In this document: one piece after another, positions 55,992 to 61,505 of the stretch | Layout: every line of letters starts with the position of its first letter | Numbering within the stretch: the first letter of the stretch is position 1 | Sequence record: OZ335963.1 | Direction: 5' to 3' (one strand) | Origin: a phage | DNA length: 64,000 nucleotides | Notes under the pieces: model-generated | The model's database searches: none | The model's input: only the letters and a program-made list of their open reading frames with translations | Told to the model about the DNA's origin: nothing | Translations under genes and position numbers: made by a program

Positions 55992-56220
55992 ATTATTCCT
56001 TAATTCCTAGTACTTGTTTAAAAGTCTCGTCGTAATCAAGACTTTGGCCCGTTTGTTCTTTATGTTTGTATATAATATCACTTACTTCTGATAGCATATT
56101 TTATATGAACGAGTTAAAGCAGATTTAAGCACGCTGTATCTATCAGGAAATTTACCATGTTCATTATAATACGCTATTGCTAATTCACGGACTGCCTTTT
56201 CAGCAATCTCCATATATTCT

Positions 56221-56538
56221 TTACGCTTGGTCATTTTCTTCTCGGTCAAATCGGTGTTTGCAATGACGACATTTATAACGAAGATTACTAGTCTGCCAAT
56301 GGACTAATTGAACCTGTTCAGTACCGCATTCAGGACAATTAGGAACGTTTTTAGAAGCCCTTTCGCGACGTTCAACCATAGCCATAATGGCATCCCAAGC
56401 TGGAGGTTTAAAGTCTAAATCATCACAATCATGAATCTTTCCACGCATTTCCAGATCGTCTTCTTCACCAGCCATAATAATTTTAATTAGACTGGAATTA
56501 CTTGAAGCTGCGATATCTTCTAATAGACGCTTTTTCAT
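56221..56538 (-). CDS. zinc-ribbon protein, 105 aa
   Basis: CPECGTE...CRHCKHRF Cys pairs. Confidence 0.45.
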
Positions 56539-57464
56539 TTTAATACCTCAATAGCATTACGTAAACCATTTGCTTTTGCATTAAGAGCTTTTAACAATTT
56601 GGTGTGTTCGGCAATCTGGGCTTCAACTTCAATTAAGCGAGCATTGAGATATTCACGTTCTTCGCTCAAGTTATCAATCTTTTCTACTTTAGGCTCTTTT
56701 ACAACTGTCTTATATGTATTAGGGTTCTTCAGTTTAATTAGAATGCGTGAACTGTATAACATTGAACCATTATCTTCGGTTTCGTCATACATTTCTACTA
56801 CGTCCATGATTTTTAGCATCATGCGGAGTTTATAAGACAACGAACGAATAGTTTTGTTGTGCTTATTAATTTCTTTAGAGTTCATGGTGCCGAGATTACG
56901 TGAGTAATAATAAGGAACCTGGATATCAATTGACAATGATGCGTTACCATTACCAGTTGGTTTGAATACTGCAGTAACCCAATCTTTAACATGAACTTTA
57001 TTTGTACGGTCATCGCCAGCGGTAAATAGTTTACGAGCATGCTTAAAAAGCATATTCACTTGGTCATTGAATTGACAAGAGAATTTATCAGCAAATTTAG
57101 TTTCAGGAATGGTAGATAGCCAATCAGCCAAATGGGTCTTTTTAACATCGTTAACAATAGTAAATTCAACCAAATCGGTTATAGATGTCGTAGATTTAAT
57201 GAAGCTCGGCTTCATAAAGTTTTTAATGTTATCGCGAGCTACAGTAGAAGATAACATACGAGAACGTTTAAACCATTCAAGCAAATTGCCTAATGAATGA
57301 GAATAGGCGTTCTGAGTATCTTTACAGATATGATTTTCCTGGCCAACATATTGAAGGAAATCACGAAGAATATTATTGATTACTGCTCTGTGTCCGATAT
57401 TATAATTACGGTGTTTAGTAATAAGACTGTCAAAATAATCAATATAATGTTTACGAGTTTTCAT
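56535..57464 (-). CDS. paralog-array protein A, 309 aa, C-terminal coiled coil
   Basis: ORF; C-terminal heptad-like tail ([37 protein letters not shown]); motif EWFKRSRMLSSTVAR resembles B-D. Confidence 0.55.
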   Translation of the reverse strand: MKTRKHYIDYFDSLITKHRNYNIGHRAVINNILRDFLQYVGQENHICKDTQNAYSHSLGNLLEWFKRSRMLSSTVARDNIKNFMKPSFIKSTTSITDLVEFTIVNDVKKTHLADWLSTIPETKFADKFSCQFNDQVNMLFKHARKLFTAGDDRTNKVHVKDWVTAVFKPTGNGNASLSIDIQVPYYYSRNLGTMNSKEINKHNKTIRSLSYKLRMMLKIMDVVEMYDETEDNGSMLYSSRILIKLKNPNTYKTVVKEPKVEKIDNLSEEREYLNARLIEVEAQIAEHTKLLKALNAKANGLRNAIEVLK

Positions 57465-57516
57465 GTTCTTCTCACTTGGTTAATGATTTATACTCCGAGC
57501 CATCCATGGCTTTAAA

Positions 57517-58518
57517 TTACTTAATTAACTGTAAAGCTTGTTCAAGACGATCCAGGCGATTAACAGATTCTTCCCAAATCCTTTTAGCCTGCTCATAATC
57601 TTTCTGCGCTTTATTAGAAATTTCTAGAGCTTCTTTATAAGCTTTTTCTAATGCAATAACTTCTGGACGAATTTCTACCGATTCAGGTGAATCATCAAGA
57701 TTATCCATTAGTTCCTCAGGGGTAGTTTCTTCTTTAGGAGTATTCACAATTTCCTCACATTTTTGTTGATAAATTTCTTTATCAGTCGGTGAGTACGCGC
57801 ACTTTACTTCACGAAGACTAACTACAATTTTGTATCCTTCCCAACCGCACATATTTTTAAAAGGATAAGTATAAATATTTTCTACTGTTTCCATACAAAG
57901 TAGTGCAGTCTCTAATTGACGAGTTATATCGCTAGCGATTGAGAAAAATTTATTAATGTTCTTTTGATTAGCTTCTGGTGTAAAAAATTCATAATTCACA
58001 AAAATAGCTGCTTTATTTTTATCAAGCTCATATTCTTTTATGATAATCATATCAGAAGCCCAAGGATGGATTTGACGATAATCGCCATAGCATAATTTAG
58101 AAGCTGATTTTAGAATTTGCTTCTTGAAAAGTCTAAAATTACTAATCCAACGACGAGTAAAAATATTCTCAGGGTCTTCTTTAATATTAAGATGATAAGA
58201 ATTAACATCACCGAACCAATTGTATCCTACTACATCTTTAGTTCGTTTAATTTCTTTCCCAAATTTACTAAGAATATCTTGATTAACTAAATATGAAAGA
58301 AGACGAGACCCTTTAAAGGTTTCCTTAATATCATCTTTATATTCGCGACTAGAAATTTTATGAACTTCATGAATAAATTTGTTGGAAGAAACAATACTTG
58401 CATCAGTATTATTGAGCCATTGATTGATAATGGAAATAACACTATTCTGACTAGACATAGGTTTAACTTTATCATCAATAACACTATTGAACGATTTGAT
58501 ATATTCGTTACGAGTCAT
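57517..58518 (-). CDS. paralog-array protein B, 333 aa, C-terminal coiled coil
   Basis: Start at MTRNEYIKSF after early promoter; motif RRWISNFRLFKKQILKSASKL shared with C and D. Confidence 0.55.
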   Translation of the reverse strand: MTRNEYIKSFNSVIDDKVKPMSSQNSVISIINQWLNNTDASIVSSNKFIHEVHKISSREYKDDIKETFKGSRLLSYLVNQDILSKFGKEIKRTKDVVGYNWFGDVNSYHLNIKEDPENIFTRRWISNFRLFKKQILKSASKLCYGDYRQIHPWASDMIIIKEYELDKNKAAIFVNYEFFTPEANQKNINKFFSIASDITRQLETALLCMETVENIYTYPFKNMCGWEGYKIVVSLREVKCAYSPTDKEIYQQKCEEIVNTPKEETTPEELMDNLDDSPESVEIRPEVIALEKAYKEALEISNKAQKDYEQAKRIWEESVNRLDRLEQALQLIK

Positions 58519-58546
58519 ATTAATCTCCTCAGTAGAAAGTAAGAAC

Positions 58547-58576
58547 ATTATACCACATCCTTGTGGCAAAGTAAAC
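58547..58576 (-). promoter_or_regulatory. T4 early-type promoter (GTTTAC, 18 bp, TATAAT)
   Basis: Minus-sense GTTTAC 58571-58576, TATAAT 58547-58552; nearly identical to promoter at 13467-13496. Confidence 0.55.
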
Positions 58577-59604
58577 TAGTTTAGTGCATTTAGTGCATTG
58601 TTCAGTTTAGAACGTTGCTTCGTGAGATTTTTGACTTTTTCTTGAGCTTTTTCTAGCATCTTTTCAGCTTCTAACACTTCATTAGTTGCTTTAACGAGTT
58701 CATCATCTACTGCCTTGATAGACTTCTCAATCGCATCTGCATGCCATTTTTCAACAGGTTTAAGACTCGGATTTTCAACAGGAAGAAAATTCGCTTTATT
58801 GAATTTCCATGCATCCTTATTACCTGAACTATACATCCAAAATTTAGGATCGTTTGATGAGCAATTGGATAAATTTAAGTTATAGTTATCTTGTACTTCC
58901 TGCTTTTTCTCTTGCGGGATTTCGTCCTTTCTCAAAAAATCATATTTAAATGAAACGATCATATCAAGTTCATATGTTGTTGTGTCTAATTTAAATCGTT
59001 CGAAATGCTGTGAAATCTTAGACTGAACAGCAGCAACAACATCCATATACTTAAATGCTTCTGTCAACTGCGATTTAAGGCATTCGCAAATTGAAAGAGA
59101 ATTTTTTGTATTAGGTTTAAAGCTAATTCGTGCAGTTCTATTATTTTCTTTTAATGGTCTTACTTCCATCTGAAGAGTATAACCATCAAATTTCAGATTC
59201 TTTAAATTAATGTCAGAACCTTTTAATCGACTAGCCGTCGACAAAATTTGTTTTAATTGTTTACGGAATAGAGCAATAAATCTCCATTCAATACGATAAT
59301 GATTTGGATTGAAAAATCCAGATGATAAATCGACCTTACTTTGACCAACGCCTTGAACAAATAGAGGATTTTTATAATCAATAGTTTTACAGAAATCGGT
59401 GAGCTGCTCACGAGCCGTCATTTGTGTAATATACCCCGCTTTACTAAAATTACTCACCCATTCACTGCTATTTAGATATTTAAAGTGATGAATAGCACGA
59501 TTAACTTTATCAGGGTCTAAATTATTTTCACACAAAAATGTCATAACATTACGAGTATCGCTGGCAGTACGAACCATATCTTCAATTTGAGAACGAGTTT
59601 TCAT
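58576..59604 (-). CDS. paralog-array protein C, 342 aa, C-terminal coiled coil
   Basis: Motif RIEWRFIALFRKQLKQILSTASRL; tail ...KATNEVLEAEKMLEKAQEKVKNLTKQRSKLNNALNALN. Confidence 0.55.
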   Translation of the reverse strand: MKTRSQIEDMVRTASDTRNVMTFLCENNLDPDKVNRAIHHFKYLNSSEWVSNFSKAGYITQMTAREQLTDFCKTIDYKNPLFVQGVGQSKVDLSSGFFNPNHYRIEWRFIALFRKQLKQILSTASRLKGSDINLKNLKFDGYTLQMEVRPLKENNRTARISFKPNTKNSLSICECLKSQLTEAFKYMDVVAAVQSKISQHFERFKLDTTTYELDMIVSFKYDFLRKDEIPQEKKQEVQDNYNLNLSNCSSNDPKFWMYSSGNKDAWKFNKANFLPVENPSLKPVEKWHADAIEKSIKAVDDELVKATNEVLEAEKMLEKAQEKVKNLTKQRSKLNNALNALN

Positions 59605-59612
59605 GGTGTTCC

Positions 59613-60518
59613 TTAAGATTTAAGTAAATCAACAATTTTAATTAACTTTTCACGCTCAGATTTAGCTTTACTACTCAATCCAGATAGTCTGAAAATTTCA
59701 TCATCATATTGTTGAATAGAAATATTCAGCTCTTCAATTTGCTTATTAAAATAATCAATTTGTTCAGAATGTTTTTCATTACTACTAATTGGTACAGGTT
59801 TCGTAGGTAATGTAGTTGAACTGGATTCATCCGGGCGGTAAATTAAAATACAACTTGAACCAATAGGGCATTTTGCACCAGATGAATATTCTAATGTTCC
59901 AGATTCTTTTAAAACTTCAAAAGCTAAACAGAGATGATGCCCCATATTAACATAATCTGTGGAGCGAGCTCTGATGTAATAATCATCGCCACGAATACTA
60001 AATTTAAAGCATTTAAGGTCTTCCGTATTATTGGTCTTAAAAATCATTTGTTTATCTAGACCTTTAGCTAATCGAGCGCCTAATGCTAATAATCGTCGTT
60101 GATTTTCCCACAAATCCGCAATCATTTGATCGAATGATAATTTCGGCATTAGTCGACCATAAAGGTCATATCCTTTATTATAATTACGAAGGATTTCACT
60201 CGCGTTAATACGAGACAATGCTCCAATTTTATTAAGAGCTTTCATAATGCGATTAGATAAACTCATTCCAGACCCATTTGTTCGCTGTAAATGTTTTTCT
60301 AATCCAAATCCAATATCAACTTTAAACTTATCTAAAATTTCTGCATGAACATCTCTGTCGATAACATTCAAATCCAAAGTTGGGTTAAATCTATGAAAAA
60401 ATTTATCTGGCTCTGCACTGCGAAATACAGTCCATTCATTCATCATTTTTTTATTAACTAAAGATTTAATTACTGCATTGACATTATTAATTACTACTGA
60501 CATATTTTCCTCACTCAA
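59613..60518 (-). CDS. paralog-array protein D, 301 aa, C-terminal coiled coil
   Basis: Motif LWENQRRLLALGARLAKGL; tail ...IEELNISIQQYDDEIFRLSGLSSKAKSEREKLIKIVDLLKS. Confidence 0.55.
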   Translation of the reverse strand: MSEENMSVVINNVNAVIKSLVNKKMMNEWTVFRSAEPDKFFHRFNPTLDLNVIDRDVHAEILDKFKVDIGFGLEKHLQRTNGSGMSLSNRIMKALNKIGALSRINASEILRNYNKGYDLYGRLMPKLSFDQMIADLWENQRRLLALGARLAKGLDKQMIFKTNNTEDLKCFKFSIRGDDYYIRARSTDYVNMGHHLCLAFEVLKESGTLEYSSGAKCPIGSSCILIYRPDESSSTTLPTKPVPISSNEKHSEQIDYFNKQIEELNISIQQYDDEIFRLSGLSSKAKSEREKLIKIVDLLKS

Positions 60519-60922
60519 TCAATTTCAATTTTACTAAATATACAGAATAAGATGGAACAGACTATATAAGCACCACACACAGATTGAACTAATACCATTC
60601 CAAAGAACCAAACAATATTATCAAACAATGTCTGTTTTACGTCGAAAGGACGTAAACTTACAGTAATATTATCACCTTTTTCTATTGAAGAATACATCTC
60701 TGGGGAAATATATTCACTAAATCTATAACCGTCTTTGAGTTCATATACGGCAATAAACGATAAACTAGACCCTTTTCCTTGTGTTCCTGTAATGGTATTA
60801 ACTACAGTAACATCATAATCTTTATAATGCATATAATCATTAATTGCGTAATAACCATATGCAACTACTACACATAAACAACATATCAATAAATTCAATC
60901 TTCTAATTATCAACCGTTTCAT
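60515..60922 (-). CDS. membrane protein, 135 aa (N- and C-terminal TM segments)
   Basis: Hydrophobic N-terminus LLICCLCVVVAYGYYAI and C-terminus FFGMVLVQSVCGAYIVCSILFCIF. Confidence 0.5.
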   Translation of the reverse strand: MKRLIIRRLNLLICCLCVVVAYGYYAINDYMHYKDYDVTVVNTITGTQGKGSSLSFIAVYELKDGYRFSEYISPEMYSSIEKGDNITVSLRPFDVKQTLFDNIVWFFGMVLVQSVCGAYIVCSILFCIFSKIEID

Positions 60923-60977
60923 AATAATCTCAATTAAAAGGGCTTAGAACCATTATACCATCCTTGGTATAAAGCGG

Positions 60978-61505
60978 TTATGCGAGTACCGTCTTTAACC
61001 GTTCTTCAAACTTCCGAAGAGTATTTTGGCGTTCAGCTCTTTGCTTTTTGTAAGTTTCAATACGCTCTGAAATGAGAGAGTATCGTTCATTTACTGATTC
61101 TTTCATAAAATCAGGAATTTCACGAGAAGCTTTAATCTCGTCAAATTTATCAATAACAGCTTGCTCTTCAGCAATTAAGTTATCATACATTAAAATATCT
61201 TTCTTGATGAACTCAATATCTTCTTGAGTTACACGAGATAATTTAGATGCTTTATCCTTTTTGTACTGTTCGTTAGTATCACGAGACCAGTGTAATGTAC
61301 GATTTTTATTCGTATTTTTGTAAATTTCTACAATACCGATCTCATCAATAATAACGATCCAATTCCAACGGGATTTGTAAATTTGTCCTCCATCAACAGT
61401 GATTTCACCTCCGATTGAGATGTCATTAAAGAACTTGCTTTGTGCTTCAGATTTAAATTTACCATCATTGTAATTTACCAAGTTGAAAATATCTTTAGCG
61501 TTCAT
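60978..61505 (-). CDS. hypothetical protein, 175 aa, C-terminal coiled coil
   Basis: ORF after early promoter; tail ...ERIETYKKQRAERQNTLRKFEERLKTVLA. Confidence 0.5.
   Translation of the reverse strand: MNAKDIFNLVNYNDGKFKSEAQSKFFNDISIGGEITVDGGQIYKSRWNWIVIIDEIGIVEIYKNTNKNRTLHWSRDTNEQYKKDKASKLSRVTQEDIEFIKKDILMYDNLIAEEQAVIDKFDEIKASREIPDFMKESVNERYSLISERIETYKKQRAERQNTLRKFEERLKTVLA

Follow-up and report, generated by a model that had tools for sequence, protein, structure and literature searches.

The phage T4 gene nrdC.5 restores plating on dsr1+ hosts, thereby countering the Dsr1 sirtuin defence, and is classed as early (Srikant, Guegler & Laub, eLife 2022, PMC9391042). In the accessible part of that paper the evidence is genetic and comes without a mechanism: plating was restored by nrdC.5 expressed alone from a plasmid, and the region containing the gene could be deleted without growth loss on laboratory hosts. 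The trigger of Escherichia coli Dsr1 is the phage major capsid protein, which is sensed by a TPR domain; sensor domains of this type also occur in Avs7 and are fused elsewhere to NADase, nuclease and kinase effectors (2026 preprint PMC12803255). DSAD1 of phage SPbeta inhibits DSR2, according to the accessible text of two papers (PMC10981675, PMC11263360). In the searchable literature, the array genes are named in three papers only; our literature search yielded nothing further on nrdC.3, nrdC.4 or nrdC.6, and no named anti-Dsr1 protein or mechanism elsewhere. Here, we analyzed a 64,000-nucleotide stretch of sequence record OZ335963.1 (the window), in which these four genes form a tandem array on the minus strand (56535-60518). 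That the genes are T4 open reading frames (ORFs), that nrdC.5 has a published anti-defence phenotype and that nrdC.3 and nrdC.4 are paired in databases was already known. New is that the anti-Dsr1 gene nrdC.5 is one of four members of a family that grew from an ancestor present in one copy, nrdC.6 being a distant member of it.

The window comes from a Tequatrovirus (T4-like phage). Its bases 56000-61000 matched more than 700 phage records, with 96% identity to Escherichia phage UGKSEcP2 and 91% to T4; DNA identity of the region to Tequatrovirus records was 91-96%. The region is flanked by the genes for endonuclease VII, pin and the NrdC glutaredoxin. The original prediction of four consecutive minus-strand ORFs was correct, and comparison with annotated AR1 and RB55 (T4 species) identified them as orthologues of nrdC.3 (56535-57464), nrdC.4 (57517-58518), nrdC.5 (58576-59604) and nrdC.6 (59613-60503), in the same order as the named T4 and AR1 genes from nrdC.2 to nrdC.7. 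Protein identity to RB55 was 62% for nrdC.3, 88% for nrdC.4, 92% for nrdC.5 and 97% for nrdC.6. The predicted lengths of 309, 333 and 342 amino acids (aa) hold for the first three genes. For nrdC.6, 301 aa had been counted from a TTG at 60518, but the start is most likely the ATG at 60503 (296 aa), which has a GAGGA Shine-Dalgarno sequence and is common to all homologues.

Sequence comparisons lend good support to the homology of the four genes within one superfamily, since significant collinear profile similarity was found with the coil left out. BLASTP among the four proteins detected only the nrdC.3-nrdC.4 pair (25% identity over 226 aa, E=1e-5); for every other pair, E exceeded 0.09. Family profiles, each built from homologues, were compared by hhalign. 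The nrdC.3-nrdC.4 pair reached 98.3% probability (E=1.9e-14) and the nrdC.4-nrdC.5 pair 79.5% (E=1.5e-5, 184 collinear columns). Direct pairs with nrdC.6, the most divergent member, were all below 7%. Thus, pairwise and profile alignment, which had been proposed as a check of paralogy, linked nrdC.3 to nrdC.4 and nrdC.4 to nrdC.5, but nrdC.6 was undetectable directly and needed intermediates.

Such intermediates were found when 1.84 billion representative proteins were searched exhaustively by HMMER, using a combined nrdC.3/.4/.5 profile. Only 20 proteins were returned at E<=1e-3, among them four full-length bridging sequences (P0235, P0238, P0241 and P0242). The first three each matched both the nrdC.4 and the nrdC.5 hidden Markov models (HMMs). 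P0242 matched the HMMs of nrdC.3 (2.8e-4), nrdC.4 (1.5e-4), nrdC.5 (1.2e-9) and nrdC.6 (4.9e-6), and the central motifs of the nrdC.5 and nrdC.6 HMMs fell on identical residues. A profile built from the four intermediates (profile I) matched nrdC.3 at 3e-10, nrdC.4 at 3e-12, nrdC.5 at 4.5e-13 and nrdC.6 at 6e-6.

As controls, the linker and coil were removed, 20 reversed-profile decoys were scored, and the coil was aligned to a reversed coil. With cores only, hhalign still linked nrdC.3 to nrdC.4 (3.7e-15), nrdC.4 to nrdC.5 (1.1e-5) and profile I to nrdC.3 (1.2e-8), nrdC.4 (8.9e-11) and nrdC.5 (2.5e-8). The core-only links of nrdC.6 to profile I and to nrdC.5 dropped to E=0.0025, with scores of about 28; these lay above all 20 decoys, which scored at most 19.4. 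When the coil was aligned to a reversed coil, the score was about 18, which equals the coil's share of the full-length match. Since coil similarity was no better than that of the reversed-profile decoys, the likeness of the coils is not in itself evidence of homology. About 40% of the score of the full-length profile I-nrdC.6 alignment (E=6e-6) came from this non-specific similarity; the alignment was therefore discarded as proof, and PM2_092 was sought instead.

PM2_092 (309 aa) is a single-copy gene adjoining nrdC.2 in Pectobacterium phage PM2; its length and phage agree with the BFVD entry A0A0A0PZG4. It matched the HMMs of nrdC.6 (2.5e-8) and nrdC.5 (8.4e-5) and profile I (2.5e-4). By hhalign, its matches to nrdC.6 (6.3e-5) and nrdC.5 (1.3e-4) both lay in the core, outside the coil, and its motif FWFITQLRVNWKMFLALGARCQFG mixes features of nrdC.5 (EWRFIALFR) and nrdC.6 (LLALGARLAKG). 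A profile of six intermediates, none from the four families of the window (profile J), matched nrdC.6 with 93.3% probability (E=2.7e-7). Of the 96 ORFs in the window that reach 80 aa or more, profile J picked precisely the four array genes (2.4e-17, 2.9e-9, 1.3e-6 and 5.6e-5) and no other ORF at E<=0.1. The claim of tandem paralogues was thus borne out by hhalign, by the bridging sequences and by this selection of 4 of 96 ORFs. As the coil-free direct evidence for nrdC.6 is modest, its membership rests on the intermediates and on predicted structure. The gene nrdC.8 (175 aa), whose product has a helical tail too, was tested as a truncated relative and is not one.

The predicted order of parts agrees in all four proteins: a helical region at the N-terminus, a conserved helix pair with the central motif, a beta-beta-alpha-beta-beta unit, then a linker without order and, at the C-terminus, a heptad helix. 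A mid-protein motif had been proposed for all four. The segments named in nrdC.4 (RRWISNFRLFKKQILKSASKL, aa 122-142, 58093-58155), nrdC.5 (RIEWRFIALFRKQLKQILSTASRL, aa 104-127, 59224-59295, on the helix pair H105-128 of the model) and nrdC.6 (LWENQRRLLALGARLAKGL, aa 131-149, 60057-60113, near-invariant within its family) proved homologous in the alignments. The segment named in nrdC.3, EWFKRSRMLSSTVAR (aa 63-77, 57234-57278), was in the wrong register: hhalign of nrdC.3 with nrdC.4 and the superfamily alignment paired it with nrdC.4 ETFKGSRLLSYLVNQ (aa 66-80), as block 1. The true nrdC.3 counterpart is the central motif helix DKFSCQFNDQVNMLFKHARKL (aa 126-146, 57027-57089).

The coiled-coil tails of the four proteins are real, as had been predicted. 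Heptads were tested against shuffled sequences in the C-terminal helices of nrdC.3 (56538-56669, p=0.016), nrdC.4 (57520-57663, end RLEQALQLIK, p=0.016), nrdC.5 (58579-58752, end KLNNALNALN, p<0.0005) and nrdC.6 (59616-59780, end KLIKIVDLLKS, p=0.0025). The a/d positions were hydrophobic in 9-11 of 12 cases, and the signature L-x-x-A/V-h-x-x-L-K closes the C-terminus in all families. AlphaFold2 models made for nrdC.5 and nrdC.6 have long terminal helices: a single 56-residue helix in nrdC.5 and a helical hairpin (H242-272 and H278-295) in nrdC.6. When variability was scored per family, the coil was best conserved, in nrdC.3 as in the others, whereas the linker and parts of the core were most variable and variation was not concentrated at the N-terminus. 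The description of a conserved scaffold with a variable body was therefore imprecise, and that of divergent N-terminal domains held only in part, since nrdC.3, nrdC.4 and nrdC.5 have an M(K)TR N-terminus and block 1 in common.

In the two models, of moderate predicted local distance difference test (pLDDT) values, the secondary-structure elements follow in the same order. Both have the same three significant full-length neighbours in BFVD, from PM2 (A0A0A0PZG4), Cronus (A0A2S1GM98) and fHe-Yen9-01 (A0A1V0DXL6). None of the four proteins matched an enzyme-like family in Pfam or NCBIfam, a profile search of all PDB chains gave no solved structure at E<=1, and the superfamily alignment contained no conserved set of polar residues suggesting a catalytic site. 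The calculated isoelectric points (pI) are basic for nrdC.3, nrdC.5 and nrdC.6 (9.0-9.5) and acidic for nrdC.4 (5.8). A weak, sub-threshold likeness to the N-terminal SAM-like core-binding domain of tyrosine recombinases was seen in nrdC.3 (aa 30-86, 57207-57377; Pfam Phage_int_SAM_1 E=0.085, NCBIfam PRK00283 E=0.0015) and in none of its paralogues; it is probably due to chance.

Every array protein already belongs to a database family (Pfam PF26897, PF23882 [DUF7235] and PF26899; PHROGs 1435, 2351 and 2257). PHROG 1435 was matched over the full length by nrdC.3 (E=4e-114) and nrdC.4 (E=6e-164). A precomputed PF26897 label (Phage_T4_Y04OP), the family type of nrdC.3 as well, is attached to close homologues of nrdC.4 with identities of up to 96%. 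Full-length nrdC.5 scored 416.8 bits (E=8e-125) against DUF7235, passing the gathering threshold of 30 bits. PHROG 2257 was matched by nrdC.6 at E=3e-150, and all 105 nrdC.6 homologues found carry a precomputed PF26899 label. Pfam and PHROGs thus merge nrdC.3 with nrdC.4 and hold nrdC.5 and nrdC.6 as separate, function-unassigned families; linking all four here took intermediate sequences and predicted structures. Many phage GenBank records name nrdC.3-nrdC.6, and also nrdC.7-.10, 'thioredoxin'. None of the four proteins matched a thioredoxin or glutaredoxin family in Pfam or NCBIfam, and the nrdC.5 and nrdC.6 models are helical with a beta-beta-alpha-beta-beta unit, so that the label looks like a carry-over from the gene name. 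The T6 record AP018814 lists clearly wrong products here, 'tail sheath protein' and 'baseplate wedge subunit' among them.

The superfamily was found only in T4-like phages (20 representatives from the HMMER search). Tequatrovirus has four copies and Mosigvirus (RB69, moskry) three (nrdC.3, nrdC.5 and nrdC.6). Dhakavirus IME08 also has three, namely nrdC.4, orf82 and nrdC.6, orf82 falling into the nrdC.5 family (E=2.6e-25). A single copy, at the same position beside nrdC.2 and nrdC, is present in Klebsiella Jiaodavirus and Pectobacterium PM2. The array position of nrdC.6 is the same in three genera. By tblastn, nrdC.3 matched 654 phage records, nrdC.4 554, nrdC.5 582 and nrdC.6 742. In Klebsiella Jiaodavirus (KpV477_088, L015 5932-6720) and on two metagenomic contigs (L012 1-726; L014 103-858), an unrelated conserved gene of about 250-270 aa lies directly upstream of the single-copy member; these upstream genes were tested as further paralogues and are not paralogues.

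Ratios of nonsynonymous to synonymous substitution rates (dN/dS) were computed gene-wide over eight Tequatrovirus loci. They were 0.29 for nrdC.3, 0.20 for nrdC.4, 0.22 for nrdC.5 and 0.11 for nrdC.6; for gp49, nrdC and nrdC.8-.10 they were 0.01-0.06, and they were likewise raised in nrdC.7 (0.26) and nrdC.2 (0.23). As all values are below 1, the genes encode functional proteins under relaxed constraint, and the range of the array genes indicates relaxed purifying selection combined with allele replacement by recombination. Within Tequatrovirus, nrdC.2 and nrdC.3 (56221-57464) show a deep allelic split (aa identity down to 0.60-0.62, dS 0.6-0.75), in contrast to the neighbouring genes with their identities above 90%. 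Three allele types of nrdC.3 were found. That of the window is 81% identical to the Mosigvirus moskry copy and only about 62% identical to those of T4, T2 and T6, which points to exchange between genera. Several records with a Mosigvirus-type nrdC.3 have only about 56513-57373 in common with the window, at 86-88% DNA identity.

Broken and rearranged copies recur. In an IMG/VR genome (L004 7054-8100), nrdC.4 is frameshifted into 193 and 158 aa, and truncated or frameshifted cluster representatives (P0229, P0231 and P0232) exist for nrdC.5, nrdC.4 and nrdC.3. The annotated RB69 nrdC.5 (L011 6974-7876) has a C-terminus without the coil of its moskry orthologue. On a 167-kb contig, a 299-aa protein (P0120) is an in-frame fusion of nrdC.5 residues 146-274 with nrdC.3 residues 129-309, nrdC.4 being deleted; it corresponds to about 57464-59170 of the window. 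The two parts meet at FNK(V/A)N, a short stretch that both have in common; this suggests a microhomology-mediated deletion between paralogues. The nrdC.6 of Shigella phage Sf25 (P0122) has grown to 378 aa through an 82-aa internal tandem duplication, which takes in the latter half of the core and the beginning of the coil. In Sf25, the nrdC.5 match (H176) is over-long as well, in two pieces. The recurrence of frameshifted or fused copies argues that the array genes are dispensable. A further protein with an nrdC.5-like coil and an unrelated N-terminus (P0236, 173 aa, L018 120-641) was not used as evidence for a portable coil, because its contig is only 803 bp long and may be a chimeric assembly.

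On balance, we lean towards the reading that the array is a tandemly expanded family of T4-like phages encoding early, oligomeric, non-catalytic inhibitors of host immune proteins. One gene specific to T4-like phages would have given rise to the four by tandem duplication and divergence; the more distant T4-like phages Klebsiella Jiaodavirus and Pectobacterium PM2 have this gene as a single copy. The array proteins would be made early, ahead of the late structural proteins, and would oligomerise via the C-terminal helix. They would act non-catalytically, by binding host immune proteins, which we infer from the absence of enzyme-family matches and of conserved catalytic-looking residues. For nrdC.5, the likeliest route would be to occupy or lock Dsr1 and so block its response to its trigger, the major capsid protein, as modelled on DSAD1 and DSR2. 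DSAD1 reportedly binds DSR2, so that the trigger goes unsensed. Because nrdC.5 is known to counter Dsr1, nrdC.3, nrdC.4 and nrdC.6 are candidate immune-evasion genes, and their putative roles would be those of specificity variants against other host defence proteins.

A role in phage-host interaction, as first suggested for the array, thus agrees with published genetics for one member (T4 nrdC.5 against Dsr1), with faster evolution than in neighbouring genes and with frequent loss or breakage. The accompanying idea of diversifying factors is not supported in the form given: with dN/dS of 0.11-0.29, positive selection is not demonstrated. Several points weigh against the reading of immune inhibitors. 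The functional data concern nrdC.5 only, are genetic, were obtained with T4 rather than with this phage and come without a mechanism. Dsr1 binding, oligomerisation and early expression of all four are proposals, and a gene-wide dN/dS below 1 does not demonstrate an arms race. The two structure models have moderate pLDDT values (68.5 and 77.7), the coil-free direct profile signal for nrdC.6 is modest (E=0.0025), and the basic charge of three of the four proteins (pI 9.0-9.5) is compatible with nucleic-acid binding as well.

This last property, together with the Arg/Lys-rich central motif and the weak recombinase-domain likeness of nrdC.3 (Pfam E=0.085, NCBIfam E=0.0015), would suit proteins that take over the host early or bind nucleic acids, with DNA, RNA or transcription as possible targets, and an indirect effect of nrdC.5 on Dsr1. 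We consider this unlikely: the recombinase-domain matches are far under curated thresholds and confined to one paralogue, nrdC.4 is acidic, structure searches with the nrdC.5 and nrdC.6 models gave no DNA- or RNA-binding fold, and, in the accessible part of PMC9391042, the array region is deletable without growth loss on laboratory hosts. We also give only a small chance to the four paralogues forming a single hetero-oligomeric complex, in which their related C-terminal helices would hold them together and all four would serve one joint function. The helix is the best-conserved segment in every family, with one common end signature, and the genes are adjacent, tightly spaced and on the same strand. 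Yet copy number varies from 1 to 4 across genera, and some phages that are otherwise intact have lost a member or have it frameshifted or fused. In addition, nrdC.5 alone from a plasmid restored plating, although the rescued mutant (T4 'evo 3') may or may not have kept the other paralogues (PMC9391042, accessible part).

It is very unlikely, in our judgement, that nrdC.6 is no true paralogue and resembles the others through a convergent coiled coil and short helical motif, the real family having three members. Direct profile pairs below 7%, coil-free links that reach only E=0.0025 and a coil score of about 18 that is equalled by a reversed coil would all fit such convergence. Against it stand PM2_092, which joins nrdC.6 (2.5e-8) to nrdC.5 (8.4e-5) with hhalign matches in the core, the P0242 residues on which both HMM motifs fall, the profile J match (93.3%, E=2.7e-7), and core scores exceeding 20 of 20 decoys. 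The same element order and three common structural neighbours of the nrdC.5 and nrdC.6 models, and the unchanged array position of nrdC.6 in three genera, argue in the same direction. Within the preferred reading of immune inhibitors, a more specific version is quite unlikely as well: the array could be a set of matched early 'sensor blockers', each paralogue directed against a different receptor with the capsid-sensing TPR domain of Dsr1 and Avs7. If true, tandem duplication in coliphages would track the diversification of one host sensor family, and a whole phage gene family would serve to blind pattern-recognition receptors before any late protein is made.

A near-consensus sigma-70-type, T4-early-like promoter match (TTTACT-17-TATAAT, minus strand, 58575-58547), preceded by TG, directly follows the nrdC.5 stop codon, ahead of the ribosome-binding site of nrdC.4; it is a predicted consensus match and suggests an internal early promoter inside the array. 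The nrdC.4 ATG at 58518 has a GAGGAG Shine-Dalgarno sequence 6 nucleotides before it. Given the promoter match between the nrdC.5 stop and this GAGGAG, the upstream TTG and ATG candidates are improbable as nrdC.4 starts. The spacer contains a GCCACAAGGATGTGG hairpin, and GAGGAG and the nrdC.4 ATG come next. The neighbouring nrdC.2 (56221-56538, 105 aa) overlaps with its start the nrdC.3 stop by 4 nucleotides. Its end is zinc-ribbon-like, with two CxxC pairs and weak matches to many zinc-ribbon families (best DUF7129, E=1e-4). On the other side, nrdC.7 (60515-60922) is a predicted membrane protein gene. In RB69 and PM2 it lies between nrdC and nrdC.2, and it is absent from the IME08 array; it therefore moves independently of the paralogue array.

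T4 is the reference phage, yet most genes of its nrdC-tk accessory region have no known function. Our analysis provides three specific counter-defence candidates (nrdC.3, nrdC.4 and nrdC.6) that are cheap to test. The map of core and coil, with a conserved oligomerisation-type C-terminal helix, serves the dissection of Dsr1 inhibition, and the nrdC.3 allele types, broken copies and fusions offer a ready set of natural variants with which the host range of therapeutic T4-like phages can be related to genotype.

Compared with known systems, the closest is T4 NrdC.5 itself, to which the window ORF at 58576-59604 is orthologous, with 92% aa identity to the T4-type RB55 copy and the same array position. 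The phenotype is known for the T4 allele only, from genetics, and the window allele is known from sequence; in the accessible part of PMC9391042, nrdC.5 figures as an uncharacterised early gene on its own, with no word on its three tandem paralogues. Clear orthology to a well-characterised single-copy T4 family, which had been named as refuting the first reading, applies in part: these are known T4 genes, one of them with a published phenotype, although none is mechanistically well characterised. The best functional analogy is DSAD1, a small phage protein that is not an enzyme and suppresses a defence NADase with a SIR2 domain; it differs from nrdC.5 in its target, DSR2 instead of Dsr1, and in its phage lineage. 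The profile search of all PDB chains, which presumably include DSR2-DSAD1 complexes, revealed no sequence relationship of the array proteins to DSAD1 at E<=1. The dmd-tifA-adfA 'anti-TA island' of T4 (PMC9391042) and anti-CRISPR loci are likewise clusters of dispensable, fast-evolving early accessory genes with a host-dependent benefit. In contrast to these, which collect unrelated genes, the nrdC.3-.6 array consists of paralogues of one ancestral gene.

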